A stretch of 64,000 nt of DNA, taken from the NCBI GenBank assembly GCA_965218695.1, contig OZ244651.1, positions 352,001 to 416,000 of the forward strand. Direction: 5' to 3'. Positions 24,802-46,210 of this stretch are shown here, one piece after another. The stretch's first letter is position 1; each line of letters opens with the position of its first letter. This DNA is from Nitrosopumilus sp. GTDB taxonomy: Archaea > Thermoproteota > Nitrososphaeria > Nitrososphaerales > Nitrosopumilaceae. A model generated the notes under the pieces. It was not told where the DNA came from. It saw nothing but the letters and a program-made list of their open reading frames with translations, and searched no databases. Position numbers and translations under genes: made by a program.

Positions 24802-24944
24802 TGAATACATGATAACCCTGCCCACCCACCACATGTAGCGGGCTGACCCCTAAATACACATGGTCACAAAGACCTAGTTCGTGAATGAGGCTATCCGAGC
24901 TGCTGTGTTACTGACCATCCGAGCCCTTGGATGTTAGTTACATG
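24802..24944 (+). ncRNA. Orphan IS110 left end with a bridge-RNA-like structure (no recombinase attached)
   Basis: Colinear with the reconstructed IS110 left end (reverse complement of 42854-42881 joined to 41488-41597); conserved CCCC/GGTC-ACAAA-GACC frame; guide AGTTCGTGAAT (24876-24886) equals its own junction (24796-24806). Confidence 0.75.
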
Positions 24945-25270
24945 TCTTGATCCCGTACTTGTACTCAAACAGGTACAGGCCGTAGTCCACGCATTCCATG
25001 GCAAGCGCAATGTCCCTCATGGTTTTGTCCCAACCATGCGTGTGGTTTCGTCCTGCACGTATTAAAGACCCCCTGTAATCATGGCAACAGTTCTTCCAGA
25101 AGCATACCAAGTGCTGGCCGTCACATGGCGGCATCATTTTCTACGTGCCGTGCCTCACGTCCTCCATGGCATGCATGTTTTGCGGCAAGAGGCACGGCCA
25201 ATACCAGATCATTGGATCCGCACGCCCTTCGTTTTATTTGCACGAATTTTGGCGTGTCATCATGAATGGT

Positions 25271-37183: not shown

Positions 37184-38872
37184 ATGGACTTGAGTGACTC
37201 CAATAATTCCAAAGACGCAGAAGAAATTTTATCGGAATTTGATTCCCGAGATTCAATCCCAGAATCAACTACTGAAAAAAAGACAGAACCAACACCGGCC
37301 CCAACAGCCGAACCCGCTCCAGAACCAACAGCCGAACCCGCTCCAGAACCAACAGCCGAACCCGCTCCAGAACCAACAGCCGAACCCGCTCCAGAACCAA
37401 CAGCCGAACCCGCTCCAGAACCAACAGCCGAACCCGCTCCAGAACCAACAGCCGAACCCGCTCCAGAACCAACAGCCGAACCCGCTCCAGAACCAACAGC
37501 CGAACCCGCTCCAGAACCAACAGCCGAACCCGCTCCAGAACCAACAGCCGAACCCGCTCCAGAACCAACAGCCGAACCCGCTCCAGAACCAACAGCCGAA
37601 CCCGCTCCAGAACCAACAGCCGAACCCGCTCCAGAACCAACACCGGCAGTAGCAGCTGAGTCAACTCCCGAACCAGCCGCCGAACCCGCTCCAGAACCAA
37701 CACCGGCAGTAGCAGCTGAGTCAACTCCCGAACCAGCCGCCGAACCCGCTCCAGAACCAACACCGGCAGTAGCAGCTGAGTCAACTCCCGAACCAGCCGC
37801 CGAACCCGCTCCAGAACCAACACCGGCAGTAGCAGCTGAGTCAACTCCCGAACCAGCCGCCGAACCCGCTCCAGAACCAACACCGGCAGTAGCAGCTGAG
37901 TCAACTCCCGAACCAGCCGCCGAACCCGCTCCAGAACCAACACCGGCAGTAGCAGCTGAGTCAACTCCCGAACCAGCCGCCGAACCCGCTCCAGAACCAA
38001 CACCGGCCCCAACAGCCGAACCCGCTCCAGAACCAACACCGGCAGTAGCAGCTGAGTCAACTCCCGAACCAGCCGCCGAACCCGCTCCAGAACCAACACC
38101 GGCAGTAGCAGCTGAGTCAACTCCCGAACCAGCCGCCGAACCCGCTCCAGAACCAACACCGGCCCCAACAGCCGAACCCGCTCCAGAACCAACACCGGCA
38201 GTAGCAGCTGAGTCAACTCCCGAACCAGCCGCCGAACCCGCTCCAGAACCAACACCGGCCCCAACAGCCGAACCCGCTCCAGAACCAACACCGGCAGTAG
38301 CAGCTGAGTCAACTCCCGAACCAGCCGCCGAACCCGCTCCAGAACCAACACCGGCAGTAGCAGCTGAGTCAACTCCCGAACCAGCCGCCGAACCCGCTCC
38401 AGAACCAACACCGGCCCCAACAGCCGAACCCGCTCCAGAACCAACACCGGCAGTAGCAGCTGAGTCAACTCCCGAACCAGCCGCCGAACCCGCTCCAGAA
38501 CCAACACCGGCCCCAACAGCCGAGCCAGCAGTTCCGCCCACCGCAGAATCACAATCCGATTCAACTACGAGTGAAACTTCGGATTCATCTAAAACATCTG
38601 AAAGGCGTGATGTGATTTTTGTGGGCGCAAAACCAATAATGACTTATGTGTCTGCAACCTTGACACAACTTTCCACCAGATCTATGGTAACCATCAAGGC
38701 TCGAGGCAAAAAAATTACACATGCAGTTGATGTGTCCCAAATGATCGTCAAGAGAATGAATTCAGTTGGATACATCATCAAAGATGTGCGAATCGCATCC
38801 GACTCTCTTAAATCCCAAGATGGAAAACTGCGTAACGTATCCACCATGGAAATTGACATATCAAAAGGGTAA
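37184..38872 (+). CDS. Alba-domain nucleic-acid-binding protein with a very long Pro/Glu/Ala/Thr repeat N-terminus
   Basis: C-terminal VIFVGAKPIMTYV...IKARGKKI..AVDV...RNVSTMEI is an Alba fold; no signal peptide. Confidence 0.88.
   Translation: MDLSDSNNSKDAEEILSEFDSRDSIPESTTEKKTEPTPAPTAEPAPEPTAEPAPEPTAEPAPEPTAEPAPEPTAEPAPEPTAEPAPEPTAEPAPEPTAEPAPEPTAEPAPEPTAEPAPEPTAEPAPEPTAEPAPEPTAEPAPEPTAEPAPEPTPAVAAESTPEPAAEPAPEPTPAVAAESTPEPAAEPAPEPTPAVAAESTPEPAAEPAPEPTPAVAAESTPEPAAEPAPEPTPAVAAESTPEPAAEPAPEPTPAVAAESTPEPAAEPAPEPTPAPTAEPAPEPTPAVAAESTPEPAAEPAPEPTPAVAAESTPEPAAEPAPEPTPAPTAEPAPEPTPAVAAESTPEPAAEPAPEPTPAPTAEPAPEPTPAVAAESTPEPAAEPAPEPTPAVAAESTPEPAAEPAPEPTPAPTAEPAPEPTPAVAAESTPEPAAEPAPEPTPAPTAEPAVPPTAESQSDSTTSETSDSSKTSERRDVIFVGAKPIMTYVSATLTQLSTRSMVTIKARGKKITHAVDVSQMIVKRMNSVGYIIKDVRIASDSLKSQDGKLRNVSTMEIDISKG
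37285..38523 (+). repeat. Compound tandem repeat: about 14 x 24 bp, about 6 x 60 bp, then mixed 60/36-bp higher-order units
   Basis: ACAGCCGAACCCGCTCCAGAACCA units; 60-bp period visible as identical sequence lines 37621-37980. Confidence 0.97.
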
Positions 38873-38873
38873 A

Positions 38874-39092
38874 TTAAAAAAATTAATTCTAGCAGCAATT
38901 GGAATTTTAACGGTTATAATCATACTTGCACTATCTGAAAATTCGTGTGGATTGCAGCATATCCAAATTTTAAATGATATATCCACATATGAAGAAACAC
39001 TGGATCCCGAGTTTTGTGAGGCCGTGGTAAGCAGGATCGACCTGTTTAACAATCAATGCATGCCAATGTTTGAAACCCTAGACTGTGGTTAA
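38874..39092 (+). CDS. Small putative exported protein with four Cys (start uncertain)
   Basis: KKLILAAIGILTVIIILAL hydrophobic leader; no canonical start codon at the expected position. Confidence 0.45.
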   Translation, partial: LKKLILAAIGILTVIIILALSENSCGLQHIQILNDISTYEETLDPEFCEAVVSRIDLFNNQCMPMFETLDCG

Positions 39093-40376
39093 TACAGGAC
39101 ATATGTCAAAAACGTTATTCCAAGGAGAGCGGCATATTCTCAAGTAGTTAATTGACAAATTTTCAGATAAAATATGGTAGGAAAGGCTCCGGTGGATTTC
39201 GGTGATCAAGCCATTAGATCATATGAGTAATCGACCACTTTCAACATAACAAAAATACGCCGCAATAGATCCTATGATTAACCCCCCATCACATCGATAA
39301 ATTTAGATCAGGCACGATCGCGTTTCACATCAAATGCCAGACTCACCTGATCAGATCATACGCAAGTTAGAACAGGAAAACAAAAAGCTAAAAAAGATTC
39401 TAAATCAGAAAGACAAAAAGCTGGAGCAGAAAGACAAAAAGCTGGAGCAGAAAGACAAAAAGCTGGAGCAGAAAGACAAAAAGCTGGAGCAGAAAGACGA
39501 GGAGCTGAGCCTTGAGCGCAGCCTGTGGAAGCGCAGGGACGGCGCGTTGAGCAAGGATGCCGGCAAGAGTGAAATGCTGCACCGGATCGAGGTTTTTGAC
39601 GAAATAATCGGCAGCAAGACCAAGATTTACCGGGCCACGCTAAAAGACAAGGAAAAGTTCCAGTTCATGCTGGCGTATGCCAAGGAATACATGAAGCATT
39701 CTGGCCGGATGCCGCTGTTTCGCGACGACGACTCCAGAAGGTCCGATCCCGGAAACCGGTGCAAGCTGCACCTGAGGCACGCCCTGCTCATGGCGCTGAT
39801 GCACAAAAAGGACAACATCACCCAGGGCGTGCTTGGCGCAGTCTTCGGGATAGACCAGGCCGCCGTGTCGCGGTACCTCAAGGTGATCGACGCGATGCTG
39901 GAAGGGACGCTTCCCACGGCAGACAGCGTGTCAGGGGAGATATCTGCAGCCCCCACCAAGGAAGAGTTCAAGAAGATCGTGCCCGGGCCCGACGGGGGCG
40001 AGATATTCGCAGACGGCACGCACTGCCCCGTGCAGCGCCCGTCCGAAAGGACGGTCAGGCGCATGAAATACTCTGGCAAGAAAAAAAAGTTCACCATCTA
40101 TGTTAACCCTCCCCCGGACTTATCCAGTTTTTGCAACCAGCTTGTCACTTTGGGTATGTTTTTTGCCTTCTTAAGCATTACCTGCAAGCAGAATCCTGCC
40201 CGACCGGCAGAAAATACGGCTTTTTGCCCCGCGGTGTGACACGCATAATCCCTTCCGGGGGGTCTGGGGGGCTGGCCCCCCAGCATTCATGTAGAAACAT
40301 CCCATAGTTCCCATAATTTGTGCACAGCATCCGCTAGACTCGGCATTGCCTACTGGCACCACCACCGGTTCCACAC

Positions 40377-41495
40377 CTACTCGTCCTTCATGACTTGTCT
40401 GATCTTGGAGCGATACAGCTTTTCGTTTCTGTCCTCGTACAGGGTGTCTTCTGTCAGCATGTGCCAGATGATAGTCAGCATCTTGTTTGCCACGTGCGTT
40501 ATGGCGACGTGGTGCTTGTGCCTCTTCATGATGCGCGTGTAGTATTCCTTCACCCTTGCGTCATGGAGCACTGCAGCAAGCGCGCACTGGACCATGATCC
40601 AGTTGACCTTCCTGTTTGAGTCCTTTTTCATCCTGCCGTGGTATGACGTGTCGCCTGACTGGTGAAGCGTCGGGCACATGCCGGCCCAGGACACGAACTT
40701 TTTTGGGTTCCCAAACCGTTTGATGTCGTCGATCTCTGCTGCCAGCAACGCTGCAGAAAATACGTTCATCCCAGTCATGCTCAGCAGCAGCTTCGGGTAG
40801 TGGGTGTCGCGGACGTATCCCTTGATCTCGACTTCGGTCTTTTTTATCTCGTCGTTGCAGTGCCGTATCTGCGATATGCAGCCGTCCAGCACGAACCTGT
40901 CCCGAGAATTCTTCATGTCTGCCTCTTCAAGATACTTTAGGGCCTTTCCCCTCCAGATGTGGCGTCCTCCATCCTTTGGATTTATGTCGCATTTGTCTGT
41001 CAGCGTGTGCACAAAGTTGATCACTTTTGTCCGGTCCTGCACCAGGGTTATCTGGTACCTGAGGATCTGCTTCATTCCCCTGGATTCGGCCGAGCCTATG
41101 TGGCAGCTCGAAATCAAGTCGGCTCGCAGCAGGTGGGCAAGCATCCTTGCGTCTATGGTGTCGTTTTTTATGCTGGCCGACGAGATTGCCTTGATCTTGA
41201 ACGGATTGGCAAGCATCAGCGGGATTCCGGCAGATTCAAATGCATCAGCAGTCTTTATCCAGTGGTTTCCTGTGGATTCGCAGACTGCCCTGCACTGACC
41301 GTATGTGGCCTTTGCGTATGCGGCAAACTCTGATGAATCCCGGGACGTGTTGCTGTACGATGACTCTTCCAGGATTGTCCCTTCATGGCTCATCACGCAC
41401 GTCACGCATTTTCTCTTTCCTATGTCGATTCCAATACTCTTTTCTATTTCTTTCACCTCCTTTTTTTTGTGTGGCAGGCCGGAAGCTGCATCCAT
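40377..41495 (-). CDS. IS110 DEDD recombinase (true start probably near 41447-41456)
   Basis: GIDIGK, CESTG, KNDTIDA and QSG motifs all intact. Confidence 0.93.
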   Translation of the reverse strand: MDAASGLPHKKKEVKEIEKSIGIDIGKRKCVTCVMSHEGTILEESSYSNTSRDSSEFAAYAKATYGQCRAVCESTGNHWIKTADAFESAGIPLMLANPFKIKAISSASIKNDTIDARMLAHLLRADLISSCHIGSAESRGMKQILRYQITLVQDRTKVINFVHTLTDKCDINPKDGGRHIWRGKALKYLEEADMKNSRDRFVLDGCISQIRHCNDEIKKTEVEIKGYVRDTHYPKLLLSMTGMNVFSAALLAAEIDDIKRFGNPKKFVSWAGMCPTLHQSGDTSYHGRMKKDSNRKVNWIMVQCALAAVLHDARVKEYYTRIMKRHKHHVAITHVANKMLTIIWHMLTEDTLYEDRNEKLYRSKIRQVMKDE

Positions 41496-41597
41496 CTATC
41501 AGGGCTCGAAGCCCAGTAACACAGCAGCTCGGATCGCCCCATTCAACAACTAGGTCTTTGTGACCAGGTGAATTTAGGGGTCAGCCCGCCACAGGTA
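41480..41597 (-). ncRNA. Putative IS110 bridge RNA (target-binding and donor-binding loops); 5-prime end separated by IS630 and continuing at 42854-42870
   Basis: CCCC-[TAAATTCACCT]-GGTC-ACAAA-GACC-[TAGTTGTTGAAT]-GGGG, then AGCTGC-[TGTGTTACT]-GGGCT-TCG-AGCCC-[TGATAGATGGAT]-GCAGCT; three of the four loop strands clearly match target or donor. Confidence 0.8.
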
Positions 41598-42851
41598 TAC
41601 CAAAAGTGAAAAGTTGATGCGATTGTCACATATTTTACCACATCTAAAGTTATACCAATTTCACGTCCCACAGTCAATGAAGATCAAGACGATGTTGAAA
41701 AGATACGCCGCTGAGACAGACTGCGATACCAAGGACCGCATGATGCTGATCATCAGAGTCAAACGTGATGGAATAACCATGAGGGATTCTGCAAAATCCC
41801 TGGGAAAGTCAGCCTCGTGGGGCTACAAGTGGCACGAGCGCTACCTGGAAGTCGGATTTGACAGGCTGGGAAACATGCCGCGCTCCGGCAGGCCGACCAA
41901 GGCGAGCAAGGCAGACATGAAGAAGATCAGAAAGGCCGCATGCAGGAAACCTGTCTGGACTGGCATGGAGATGCAGCAATACATCCAACAGAAGACCGGA
42001 GTGAAGTACGAACTCGGATATGTGCGCCAGATACTGCGCGGGTGGGGCTATTCCCAAAAGGTTCCCGTAGGAAAACATGCAAGAAGGGCGCCTGACGAGG
42101 AGATCAGGAAATTCCAAAAAGAGATGCCAGAGCTTATAAAAAAAAGAACAGTGAAGGAACAGTCGTAGCGATACAGGACGAGTCCATAGTAATCTCCGAT
42201 GCGCGGCCGCGAAGACGCGGCTACACCAGGAAGGGAATACGGGCGTTTTTCACGTACACCGGCTCACACTCCAAGACGATAATCCATGGACTAATCACCA
42301 CGGACGGCAGGGGCATGTTCCGGCAGTACGATGCGTTTACCAAGGACACCTTTGAGGACTTTCTAAGGCAGGCGATGTACAGGTTCAAGAAGATCTGCCT
42401 GATCATGGACAAGGCCTCCCAGCACAGGGCATCAAACATACGCAAACTGCTTGATGGCACAGACGGCCTGGAGATAATCTTCCTGCCAACTGCGACCCCG
42501 GACCTGAGCGCCATAGAGACGTACTGGAGGGATCTCAAACGGGCAGTGCTTGACGTGCCGTACACCAGCCTGAGCATGCTCCGCGAGGCGATCACCAGGT
42601 ACGCGAGGTACAAAAAACCAAATCTGGTAGTCGAGAATTTTCTGTACAGGGCCATCTAGAACGACATCAAACCACACCGGATCCACGCCGCCTAGCGTGT
42701 GCCATGCACGGCGCATCAGAGCATGCAATGTCTAATGTTCGGGGCGTCTTTTCTCGTCATTTGGGAATTCAACGCACCTCGTAATTTCCAGAGATGGATG
42801 TCGCATCAAAAATTTATGAGCGATTTTGATATGAATTTTTCATTGCTGGTA
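41598..42851 (+). mobile_element. IS630-family element inserted in the IS110 left end
   Basis: TA duplication (41596-41597, 42852-42853); TIRs TACCAAAAGTGAAAAGTT / TACCAGCAATGAAAAATT. Confidence 0.92.
41677..42659 (+). CDS. IS630 transposase in two frames joined by a probable -1 frameshift
   Basis: HTH ORF to 42168; A8G run 42138-42146; the -1 frame continues KNSEGTVVAIQDES...MDKASQH...PDLSAIETYW. Confidence 0.85.
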
Positions 42852-43771
42852 TAGTGGGTGGGTGGGGTTATCATGTATTCAACAACACCAACGTGTACGC
42901 CAACAAAAACGGGGTGATAATCGGCATATCCAAGAGCACCGTCGGGTCAGTCGGCGACATCACGCTTCTCAAGGAACGCCCCATGCCGTTTGGAAGATGG
43001 GAGGAGGCGATGCACGACCCGGATCTGCCCGAGGCACAACGGTGCCACGTCTTTGTCGACCGCGGCTACCAGGGGATCGAAAAACACCTGCCCGGCACGA
43101 CCCCGGAGATCCCGTACAAGAAGAGCAAGAAGGCGCCCCTGACGCCGGAGCAAAGGGAGCACAACCACAGGATCCACTCCGAGCGCGTGCTAGTCGAGCA
43201 CACCATAGGCAGGCTCAAGCGCTACGCGCGTCTTTCCGACCCGTACGACGGAACCGCGGCGCAGTTCAACCGGGAGTTCAACGTGATCACAGGGCTGGTG
43301 AACCTGGACCTTTTGTGGGACTACGTGCAAAAGGGCCCGCCGCCACCGGGCCGGTGGAGGATGCAGGTAGACTGGGACAAAGCCTGCTCCCGGGAACCTG
43401 TCAAGTAGAATTCAGGGCACATCGAGGTGCTACAGGACTGCGCACGCCATCTTGGATTTTGTAATAAATTAATTCGCCACGCACTCGGCATAGTTGGCAT
43501 TTAGTCGTATTTTTCTGATTTTATGGCCCAAACCGGCAAGATGGGAGGGATTACTCATGAGTTCTATTAGAATTTACCAGAATCGAAGCCATCCGGGCGC
43601 GCGTCGGCCTCTCGCTCCATGGCACGATGCACGGGCGCTGGTTATTAATTGACATTTAATCAGATTTAAAATACCGATCAGCTACTTTTGTAGATTAAAT
43701 CATTCGGAAAGATCATCGGACCGCATAATGACGGATTGTCTGTTCTATTCGAGAGTATTTTGTATCAGACT

Positions 43772-45063
43772 CAGTCTTCCCAGAAGTAGCTCAGGGTAGC
43801 ACCGGCGGCGGGGGCTCCGGCGGCTCTTTGTAGCCAAATACGATCAGCAACAGCAGCATGTCCCTGAGATCCTGTTGGGTGATCGGGGGATCCGTGGGAT
43901 AAATCCCGGTAACGTGCATCAGCGTTGCGTTTGCCATTACCCAAGCGTTAAAGACGGCTACAGAGTACACAAAGCACAAAAGTCGCGCCATCGGGTTCTT
44001 GCTGTGCGTCTTGGCCCTTGTGTTTTCTATCATCCGGTATCCAGTCTCTATGCCCCACCTGTTCCCGTACGAGTCCGGATCCACGTCGGGGACGTTGGTG
44101 GCAAACCCGATGTATTTCTCGTGCGGCAGCAGCTCGTCGTCGTCCTTTCTTTTCTTCCTCTTCTTCCTTTCTGTGATGGTCATCGTATACGACACCTCCC
44201 TGCCATCTCCCCCGACGATGACGGATTTGGAGACGCGGCCGCGCCTGCCTGTAGCAAACTCTGCGATGGCATCCACCACAGTATCCGTATTCTTGCATGG
44301 TATCAGATATTTGATGCCCATGTCCCCAAGCGTCCCCATTACGTCTGCCGTAAAGAACTCCCTGTCCAGCATCGCCATTCCGATGCAGGCCCCCACGTCC
44401 CGTGCAGAGCCGATGATTTTACGCACGAAATCGGCAGTATCCTCAAGTGACGGCATGTTCAGGACGCCTAACACGAGGCGAAGGTTCTGAACCGTGGACT
44501 GTATCGTGATGTACCTCTCAAAGACGTGTGTCCCGTCCTTGGCCTTTGAGCGCACCAGTTCTGCCCCGTAGCTCTTGTCGTATCTGGGTATCAGGTGCAT
44601 GTCGATTGCCAAGTCAATCTCCTGGTCTTTCTTGAGCAGTCTCATCTTGCGCATCTGGTCAAGCTGCAGGACGACTGTCTTGGCAAAGCATTTGTAGACG
44701 TCGCTGCCACGCGTCCGGGATGCCGCATCGCGCATCCACTCATCACTTGGGCGTGAGTCCCCGTCTGCACCGCCGATTCTCTTGGAGGACCTGGTGCATC
44801 CGGCCACCTGCCTGCCGTGCGCACATGCGCCTGCCATGCTTCTGTGAAAATCCTCGGTGCCGTAGATGGCATTGTGCCTGTGTGAGACCATGATGCACGG
44901 GGACATGCCTGCCCCTACCGTGTCCAGAACATCTTGATATATGCGTGGGTTGTTAAGCAAGTCGCGTCTCAGTTGGTTCATTGGTAGTTCGATGACCTTC
45001 TGAGATTGCCCTAATTGATCTGTTTTGATTTTGGGCTGTTTTCAGGTACTTCTGGGAAGACTG
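43772..45063 (-). mobile_element. ISH3-family element
   Basis: TIR CAGTCTTCCCAGAAGTA at both ends; 5-bp TSD AGACT. Confidence 0.92.
43791..44981 (-). CDS. ISH3-like transposase
   Basis: AIDMHLIPRY, MLDREFF, YGNRWGIETGY; paralogue of 18515-19651. Confidence 0.9.
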   Translation of the reverse strand: MNQLRRDLLNNPRIYQDVLDTVGAGMSPCIMVSHRHNAIYGTEDFHRSMAGACAHGRQVAGCTRSSKRIGGADGDSRPSDEWMRDAASRTRGSDVYKCFAKTVVLQLDQMRKMRLLKKDQEIDLAIDMHLIPRYDKSYGAELVRSKAKDGTHVFERYITIQSTVQNLRLVLGVLNMPSLEDTADFVRKIIGSARDVGACIGMAMLDREFFTADVMGTLGDMGIKYLIPCKNTDTVVDAIAEFATGRRGRVSKSVIVGGDGREVSYTMTITERKKRKKRKDDDELLPHEKYIGFATNVPDVDPDSYGNRWGIETGYRMIENTRAKTHSKNPMARLLCFVYSVAVFNAWVMANATLMHVTGIYPTDPPITQQDLRDMLLLLIVFGYKEPPEPPPPVLP

Positions 45064-45122: not shown

Positions 45123-46210
45123 TAGTGTCAATCAAAAGTCTTCTACGTCAGTCTGAGCGTAACATTTTTTGATCACTCCGCACTACCGCCCACATGGATG
45201 AAAAAAGCAAAAAGCTGTTAATCCAGGCCTACAAGAGAGAGAAGAGGGGAACCATAAAGGGTAGGATCCACGCCGTCTGCATGGTCAAGATCAGGGGGCT
45301 GGGCGTATCCGAGGTGGCATCACTGTGCTTTTGCGACCCGCACACTGTCACAAGCTGGGTCCGGCACTTTGAAAGCGAGGGTCTTGCAGGCCTGGAAGAC
45401 AGGCCCCGCCCGGGCAGGCCGCCCAAGGTCGGGCTTGAGAAGATTGCGGGGCTTGCAGCAAGGACTGGCAGCATCACAACTCCAAAGCAGCTCAAAGAAA
45501 ACATACGCAAAGAATTCAAGGTGACATACCACATTTCAAACGTCACAAAGATAATGCACAGGCTTGGCCTGTCTGCCAAGACGGTCCAGCGCATCCACGT
45601 CAACAGGCCAGGGATCAAAAAGATCAGGCAGTGGCAGCGCAACGCCAAAAGGCGGATTTCACGCCTGCAAGAGAAGGGTTTTCTCCCAGTCGTCTTTGAC
45701 GAGGCCATATTTGTAGACGATCCGGCATCGGGCGTAAAGTATTGGTCGCCAGAAGGCGAGCCGATTGTCACGACATACAAGGGACGGCACGGAAAGGTGG
45801 TGGCATACGGTTCCATTGTAACAGACGGCAGGCAGTTCTTCAGGACGCATGAAAAATTTGACAAGGAGACGGTCCTGCAGTATCTCAAGGATCTGGTCAG
45901 GCATTTTGGAAAGGTGGTCGTAATCATGGATAATGCGCCACAACACAAGTCAAGGATCGTGATGAAATTTCTAAAGGAAAATCCCGACATCAAGGTCATG
46001 TGGCTTCCAGCTGCAACGCCCGAGCTTAGCGGCGTGGAGGAGTACTGGCACCAGGCAAAACGTAACGTGCTGGTGTCCGAGTACTATGCCACGATAGTGC
46101 AGATGCGCAACGCGATGTCGGAGTATTTCAGGACCGCGCGTCCAAGGATTGACGTAATGGAGTTCATCTGTAGAAAGTCCCTAAATGTAAAAAACTTTTG
46201 ATCGACACTA
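45123..46210 (+). mobile_element. IS630-family element
   Basis: TA duplication in a CTAG target; TIR TAGTGTC(A/G)ATCAAAAGT. Confidence 0.92.
45194..46201 (+). CDS. IS630 transposase
   Basis: DRPRPGRP, FDEA, MDNAPQH, PELSGVEEYW. Confidence 0.93.
   Translation: MDEKSKKLLIQAYKREKRGTIKGRIHAVCMVKIRGLGVSEVASLCFCDPHTVTSWVRHFESEGLAGLEDRPRPGRPPKVGLEKIAGLAARTGSITTPKQLKENIRKEFKVTYHISNVTKIMHRLGLSAKTVQRIHVNRPGIKKIRQWQRNAKRRISRLQEKGFLPVVFDEAIFVDDPASGVKYWSPEGEPIVTTYKGRHGKVVAYGSIVTDGRQFFRTHEKFDKETVLQYLKDLVRHFGKVVVIMDNAPQHKSRIVMKFLKENPDIKVMWLPAATPELSGVEEYWHQAKRNVLVSEYYATIVQMRNAMSEYFRTARPRIDVMEFICRKSLNVKNF

Follow-up and report, generated by a model that had tools for sequence, protein, structure and literature searches.

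The bridge RNA of the insertion sequence (IS) IS621, a member of the IS110 family, reads from the junction of the element into its left end. As far as the published descriptions of this system go (PMC11208160, PMC11208158), the guide for the left arm, a bottom-strand complement, lies 5' of the guide for the right arm, and a handshake guide follows the 3' strand. In the account of Siddiquee et al. (2024; PMC11187229), a reversed order of the guides separates the seekRNAs of the IS1111 type from those of the IS110 type. According to the same account, IS1111 elements have subterminal inverted repeats, as a rule 11-13 bp long, beyond which the left end extends by 7 bp and the right end by 3 bp; in most of them, with a few exceptions, the non-coding region is found downstream of the gene. 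ISMtsp17, ISHvo10 and ISAcp5 are described there as IS1111 relatives that have an upstream non-coding region or long non-coding regions on both sides. For related elements, co-purification of the RNA with the transposase is also reported, as is its origin by cutting from a longer transcript. Here, we analyze an IS110-family element in a 64,000-nucleotide stretch of Nitrosopumilus sp. DNA (assembly GCA_965218695.1, contig OZ244651.1, positions 352,001 to 416,000; hereafter the window), together with the guide RNA that it probably encodes.

We consider it probable that this is an IS110-family element in the broad sense, of the IS1111 type by its ends and guide order, which has the guide RNA located upstream of its recombinase gene and recombines under the direction of this RNA. 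Read on the minus strand, the locus consists of three nested insertion sequences: an IS5-like element contains the IS110-family element, which in turn contains an IS630 element. The host genome encodes an archaeal AmoA and therefore belongs to an ammonia-oxidising archaeon. This agrees with a first reading of the window (the original prediction), which had proposed a bridge RNA of IS621 layout in a thaumarchaeote.

Ends, insertion site and recombinase

The IS110-family element spans 2785 bp, of which 1531 bp remain once the IS630 insert is taken out (Table 1). Its left end begins at 42879 and its right end finishes at 40097, and both junctions carry the dinucleotide TG. Where the target gene is uninterrupted, as it is in two copies, its sequence is ...GTGTTAT-TG-GTGAATTT..., with one TG each, and in these copies the sequence after 40094 resumes at 42882. 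Because the empty target copies hold a single TG, the core comprises two nucleotides, and there is no target duplication. The frame of the 5' half of the IS5-like transposase itself stops at 40094, and the listed open reading frame extends to 40239 within the element.

The IS630 insertion is flanked by a TA duplication (41596-41597 and 42852-42853). Its bounds are fixed, since a second copy of the IS110-family element in the same genome, 99.9% identical and located in the same IS5-like gene, has no IS630. Contigs from four public sequencing runs join 40094 to 42880, with two letters shared, and show a second joint from 41595 to 42852. The contigs show no joints beyond those that correspond to an empty target site and to an IS630-free left end elsewhere in the genome, and they therefore add nothing independent on activity.

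The recombinase frame is open back to 41495, and its true start is uncertain. The protein matches the Pfam families PF01548 (DEDD_Tnp_IS110, 3.4e-24) and PF02371 (Transposase_20, 1.4e-22), as well as the NCBIfam model NF033542, "IS110 family RNA-guided transposase" (227 bits, cut-off 140). Among its relatives, only IS621 and ISCro4 have been solved. In an alignment with the solved IS621 recombinase, the catalytic residues D, E, D, D and S are in place, and all of them are intact, as the original prediction had stated.

Fold of the predicted upstream RNA and its guide strands

Without IS630, the non-coding region upstream of the recombinase gene is 172 nt long, and the one downstream is 280 nt long. 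The upstream region contains a 9-bp closing stem (P1) around two modules, in each of which an outer stem opens into a large internal loop that is capped by a hairpin. We built a structure alignment of 30 sequences, made up of 6 copies from the host genome and 24 relatives. In its consensus fold of 25 pairs, 94.1% of the cells are paired, compared with 32-47% when the partners are slid by 1-3 columns. Compensatory changes are found in 18 of the 25 pairs, and in P1 all nine pairs have changed on both sides across the relatives. None of 500 shuffles attains any of five measures, a count that is not a probability because the sequences are related; the slid control is unaffected by this. The alignment contains 55 G.U pairs and 16 A.C cells, indicating that the fold belongs to the gene-sense strand. 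The fold z-score of the region is -3.19.

The covariance model derived from the alignment scores 134.3 bits at 41470-41593 on the minus strand, although this score is not independent, since the same sequence type went into the model. Among 29 loci from other genomes, the 24 with a complete left end were all used in the model. Of the remaining five, four have a match upstream of the gene (115, 62.5, 35 and 30 bits) and one, L051, has none. The 280-nt right non-coding end of the element (40097-40376, minus strand) gave no match to the model. The total length of the relatives ranges from about 1270 to 1690 bp, and a right end as long as this one is thus not characteristic of the family. A search of positions 39000-44000 with Rfam 15 in E-value mode returned only a chance match to RsmY (E 0.88) and no bridge-RNA family.

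The variable columns of the alignment coincide exactly with the loop strands. When the RNA is followed from 5' to 3', loop 1 has the reverse complement of the right flank on its 5' strand and the sense of the left flank plus TG on its 3' strand, which continues with left-end bases 1-3. In loop 2, the 5' strand corresponds to left-end bases 1-6 in reverse complement, and the 3' strand to the sense of the right end plus TG. Loops 1 and 2 thus correspond to a target loop and a donor loop, respectively.

Much of this had been anticipated. The two hairpin-capped internal loops on the minus strand were recovered once IS630 was removed, and the proposed check by a covariance model across homologous left ends yielded the paired fraction and compensatory changes given above. 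The loop 1 strands AAATTCACC (41575-41567) and GTTGTTG (41550-41544) do correspond to the two target arms, and ATAGATG (41499-41493) to the right end plus core. The fourth strand had been said to match the left end only loosely. Indeed, the pairing of TGTGTT (41523-41518) with the left end AATACA includes one G.T wobble; most relatives have AACACA as their left end, and to this the strand is complementary throughout. The further claim that both right-hand guides extend into the recombined junctions stands for the target loop, where the continuation AAT equals the first three nucleotides of the element. It fails for the donor loop, where the extension amounts to 1 nt here and is at chance level across the family.

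For a family-wide comparison, the strands of each element were scored against its own sites and against shuffled partners (100,000 shuffles). The 3' strand of loop 1 agrees with the left flank at 4.77 of 6 positions (2.05 shuffled, n=30), and the 5' strand with the right flank at 4.65 of 7 (2.17 shuffled, n=26; this count takes in L027, whose right-end call is not credible, while four elements have no right-end call). The 5' strand of loop 2 agrees with the left end at 4.5 of 6 positions (3.16 shuffled, 22 distinct pairs). In none of these three comparisons did any shuffle score as high. In 25 of 26 relatives, the 5 nt ahead of the core in the 3' strand of the donor loop are identical to the right end of the same element, with five variants and L027 as the exception. 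All four guide strands thus covary with the sequences that they match. The 3-nt extension of loop 1 covaries weakly with the left end (1.91 of 3 against 1.53, 11 distinct pairs, 816 of 100,000 shuffles as high); for example, ACT accompanies left ends beginning with ACT. The corresponding extension of loop 2 does not depart from chance when compared with the right flank (0.96 of 3 against 0.79, n=26, 9766 of 100,000 as high). Within the host genome alone, at least five guide specificities occur, each paired with its own flanks, as can be seen by eye.

Table 1. Positions within the window of the IS110-family element, its predicted guide RNA and the sequences around and inside it
Feature	Position	Strand	Remarks
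Whole IS110-family (IS1111-type) element	40097..42881	-	TG core plus left end through right-end AGA, IS1111 convention
Left-junction core dinucleotide TG (CA on + strand)	42880..42881	-	TG repeated at 40095-40096
Left terminus: AATAC, then subterminal inverted repeat ATGATAACCC	42865..42879	-	9/10 match to reverse complement of right repeat
Predicted bridge RNA (seekRNA) core, 124 nt: closing stem P1, target-binding module, donor-binding module	41470..41593	-	
P1 5' strand GGCGGGCUG	41582..41590	-	pairs with 41473-41481
Target loop 5' strand AAAUUCACC	41567..41575	-	8/9 at own site, 9/9 at two empty sites
Target loop 3' strand GUUGUUG plus handshake AAU	41541..41550	-	10/10 against left junction (7/7 without extension)
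Donor loop 5' strand UGUGUUACU	41515..41523	-	positions 1-6 complementary to left-end positions 1-6
Donor loop 3' strand AUAGAUG	41493..41499	-	sense of right end plus core
P1 3' strand CGGCCUGCC	41473..41481	-	pairs with 41582-41590
Recombinase gene, 359 amino acids from GTG at 41456	40377..41456	-	PF01548, PF02371, NF033542
Right non-coding end, 280 nt: inverted repeat GGGTTAACAT (40109-40100), then AGA (40099-40097)	40097..40376	-	
Right-junction core TG	40095..40096	-	single TG at empty sites
Target gene 5' half, IS5-like transposase	39334..40094	+	Pfam HTH_Tnp_4
Target gene 3' half	42882..43408	+	Pfam DDE_Tnp_4 and DDE_Tnp_1
IS630-family insertion sequence, 1254 bp, terminal inverted repeats	41598..42851	+	at left-end position 28; Pfam HTH_32/HTH_33, DDE_3

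Placement within the IS110 family and competing readings

The sequence features of the broad IS110 family are present: a DEDD plus Ser protein, a structured two-loop RNA, covariation of the guides, and insertion at a core without duplication. The ends point to the IS1111 type. The subterminal inverted repeat of 10 bp, ATGATAACCC against GGGTTAACAT, agrees at a mean of 8.0 of 10 positions over 25 relatives at the same offsets (9 of 10 here), and in 14 of the 25 elements the repeats match best at the offsets 5(+2)/3. Beyond the repeats, the left end extends by 7 bp (TG plus AATAC) and the right end by 3 bp (AGA). Along the RNA, the guides come in the reverse of the IS621 order, as the latter is given in published descriptions, and thus also follow IS1111. 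The element departs from the IS1111 pattern in that the RNA lies upstream of the gene and not downstream. The upstream position is shared with the IS110 group, but in that group the left-arm guide lies 5' of the right-arm guide and repeats have 0 or 2-3 bp, neither of which applies here. In view of ends and guide order, we file the element as IS110 family in the broad sense, IS1111 type, with the guide RNA upstream.

Comparison with named elements is consistent with this placement. IS5075/IS4321 and ISEc11 have the same end plan, with a 7-bp left extension, a repeat starting with ATG, a repeat ending with CAT, and AGA, and they are likewise without target duplication. In annotated IS5075 from an E. 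coli plasmid, which served as a control, the complement of the right flank (9/10) lies 5' of the strand with the sense of the left flank, the same order as in the window element. The differences are that the guide RNA of IS5075/IS4321 and ISEc11 lies downstream of the gene, and that the repeat of the window element has 10 bp instead of the usual 11-13 bp of the IS1111 type in the account cited above (PMC11187229). The combination of IS1111 features with an upstream or double non-coding region resembles ISMtsp17, ISHvo10 and ISAcp5, which were compared by their description in the same source only.

With IS621 and ISCro4, as published (PMC11208160, PMC11208158), the window element shares the DEDD plus Ser recombinase, the upstream RNA, the target and donor internal loops, the 3' end of every guide at the 2-nt core, and a handshake after the 3' strand of the target loop. 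In the same descriptions, the core is CT, as opposed to TG (CA) here, the guide order is the opposite one, and IS621 has a 5' stem-loop plus two independent modules where the window element has a closing stem, in addition to its long subterminal repeats. The geometry would be the same only if the DNA were read antisense to the genes. The original prediction had written donor and target in just this way, and the reversal was therefore hidden in it.

For this reason, the IS621 layout that had been predicted survives only in part. The upstream position of the RNA and its two loops stand; the guide order, the IS1111-type ends and the closing stem, which had gone unseen, do not fit it. A true IS110-group element with a 5' stem-loop, a target loop, a donor loop and left guides on the 5' side is accordingly improbable. 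Its non-coding region would lie upstream of the gene as in that group, its two internal loops would be capped by hairpins as observed, and IS621 and ISCro4 are, after all, the only relatives that have been solved. These points are outweighed by a guide order opposite to the published one and by a 10-bp subterminal repeat with extensions of 7 and 3 bp. In addition, the predicted 5' stem-loop is paired in 57.2% of cells over the 30 sequences, much like its slid controls (51-54%), and it is the closing stem that covaries instead. The proposed stem-loop uses some bases of that stem, and the predicted start at 41480 cuts through it (41590-41582 with 41481-41473). As a fixed helix, the 5' stem-loop is thus unsupported on 30 sequences, although the alignment is poor in this part and a hairpin at varying positions is possible.

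A second alternative is that the structure acts as DNA, for instance as a single-stranded end (cf. IS200/IS605), or as an mRNA leader that controls translation, and that no free guide RNA is formed. We could not find a terminator between the structure and the gene, and a Shine-Dalgarno-like GGAGGTG follows directly after the structure, ahead of the recombinase gene; moreover, a free guide RNA is at this locus a prediction from sequence. Nevertheless, a mere leader would not be expected to covary with flanks and ends. The protein is a DEDD plus Ser recombinase of a family that NCBI names RNA-guided, not an HUH enzyme, and in related elements, according to the account of Siddiquee et al., the RNA is found with the transposase after being cut from a longer transcript. 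We therefore regard this alternative as unlikely. Finally, the loop-flank matches might be suspected to be fortuitous, or to reflect target sequence that was copied into the element, because the guides are short (7-9 nt) and the right-arm match needs a register shift, but the concordance of three guide strands, unattained in 100,000 shuffles, and the mirroring of five right-end variants in the donor loop of 25 of 26 elements refute this reading statistically and leave it a negligible probability.

The sequence thus supports an RNA-guided IS110-family element with a two-loop target and donor RNA, as originally predicted, and RNA-guided recombination is the most likely mechanism by analogy with characterized elements. 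In this mechanism, modelled on IS621, ISEc11 and ISEc21, the element would excise as a circle, joining ...CATAGA to TG-AATAC.... An RNA of about 124 nt (41593 to 41470) would be read in the direction of the recombinase gene, and the closing stem would hold its two modules. The 3-nt extension of the target loop would fit the incoming left end after strand exchange, and the two loop strands of the second module would likewise pair with the element's own left and right ends. The DEDD plus Ser recombinase would then exchange strands at the TG (CA) core, resulting in insertion without duplication.

Several observations weigh against an RNA-guided element of the IS1111 type or limit how far this assignment can be pressed. 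Protein similarity does not settle the placement: the match of the recombinase to IS621 scores 51 bits in two pieces, and its alignment with the transposase of IS5075 runs end to end (E 2e-20) at an identity of 23%, too distant for classification without a tree. At E <= 1, the covariance model matches neither the non-coding region downstream in IS5075 nor the one in a Neorhizobium relative, which is no evidence either way on homology of the RNAs. The shuffle tests overstate the independence of related sequences. No promoter or terminator could be named for the RNA (sigma-70 scans do not apply to archaea); one idea is that, across the circle junction, the AT-rich right inverted repeat might function as a TATA box. 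Production of the RNA, its binding by the recombinase and the need for it in recombination are inferred by analogy with related elements. Both copies of this subtype are interrupted, the window copy by IS630 in its left end and its twin by a 1211-bp insertion sequence in its right end. Finally, the right-arm guide of the window copy fits its flank, with one mismatch, only if the register is moved by +1 nt, one base nearer to the hairpin than is the case for most relatives. The 1-nt slip is also seen in L039 and L043, that is, in 3 of 26 elements, and suggests that a one-base bulge adjoining the core is tolerated.

Relatives, state of this copy and neighbouring elements

Apart from the 99.9% identical twin, about a dozen more copies are present in the host genome at 78-88% identity. 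Homologues at E <= 1e-20 occur in 70 of 401 genomes of the same class, a tally that counts the host genome itself and one genome marked unpublished. One relative, L028 (G227), has the 3' target guide TGTTGTTG and is inserted within a GTT/GCT microsatellite.

A more distant relative from another archaeal class is located on a Haloarcula sp. plasmid (NZ_CP142029.1, locus L057), where the annotation gives an IS110 family transposase only. Its protein is 33% identical end to end, and its non-coding region also lies upstream. The repeat matches at 13 of 13 positions, the extensions are TG+5 and 3 nt, and by eye the 3' target guide equals the left flank. The covariance model matches this locus marginally (14.9 bits, E 0.021). 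The Neorhizobium relative, at the same protein identity of 33%, has its long non-coding region downstream.

Taken together, we lean, with less confidence than in the placement of the element itself, towards an archaeal clade of IS1111-type bridge recombinases in ammonia-oxidising Nitrososphaeria with relatives in Halobacteria. In this clade, the guide RNA would have moved 5' of the gene, a covarying stem would close a three-way junction, at least five guide sets would have been reprogrammed naturally in one genome, and some sites would be used with a 1-nt register slip. If this is true, the clade provides a ready-made series of natural reprogramming events for a recombinase of mesophilic archaea that has a TG/CA core.

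In the literature on Thaumarchaeota/Nitrososphaeria, we found no account of bridge RNAs, and the IS110 papers that we found on Nitrososphaera are not about guide RNAs. The original prediction, in which no characterized element of this kind was known, is in line with what we found for this lineage. A 2026 preprint predicts 32,190 bridge RNAs from 86 models across the genomes of bacteria and archaea, and archaeal IS110 recombinases have already been catalogued. The family of the window element may be covered by the models of this preprint, by the supplement of Durrant et al. or by the tree of Siddiquee et al. Since the family is established, archaea have been surveyed and archaeal recombinases catalogued, a bridge-RNA element in a thaumarchaeote was to be expected. 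The element is a further case of the bridge-RNA/seekRNA family in the rarer IS1111 arrangement with upstream RNA, and not a new kind of system.

What the locus contributes is modest overall, though concrete. It clearly exemplifies a rare hybrid, in which IS1111-type ends and guide order are combined with an upstream RNA whose closing stem is well backed by covariation. The presence of several diverged subfamilies in one genome, with guides and insertion sites changing together, amounts to a natural reprogramming experiment. The element is also a data point on the movement of guide RNAs between element ends in IS110/IS1111 evolution and a possible candidate for a compact recombinase with a different core.

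The RNA core and the recombinase frame of the window copy are intact and identical to those of the twin. The 1254 bp of IS630 lie between the RNA core and the terminus, and hence also between the core and any promoter at a circle junction. Expression of the RNA in cis is therefore doubtful, and the window copy can probably not express it from a junction promoter. The twin elsewhere in the genome could supply it in trans, and full-length copies of other subtypes with open frames are present as well.

The reading frame of the IS630 copy is broken into 41614-42168 and 42315-42659. Contigs from three of the public runs have one base fewer at 42138, so this copy may be frameshifted relative to others. 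The 1211-bp insertion sequence in the right end of the twin is of the DDE_Tnp_1 type (G000:C1:2048095-2049305; L002:290-1500), and one copy of another subtype has a gap of exactly this length at the corresponding position (G000:C1:194237-195447). This suggests that the 1211-bp element prefers a site in the right end.

We also note an orphan bridge-RNA fragment at 24834-24954 of the window (plus strand, 51.4 bits), with an intact target module, a truncated donor module and no recombinase gene behind it; its 3' guide GTTCGTG equals its own left flank. More distant DEDD_Tnp_IS110 genes of other lineages are located in the host genome at G000:C1:447604-448056, 444561-445010, 2319403-2319852 and 1721112-1721561. 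Beside the IS5-like gene, the window encodes a protein with a weak DDE_Tnp_1 match (43791-44981, minus strand) and an intact IS630-family transposase (45194-46201, plus strand), and the region is a cluster of nested mobile elements. On the other side, at 37184-38872 (plus strand), a 562-amino-acid protein is encoded that has a C-terminal Alba domain (E 1.9e-11) after about 440 residues of near-perfect Pro/Glu/Ala/Thr repeats.

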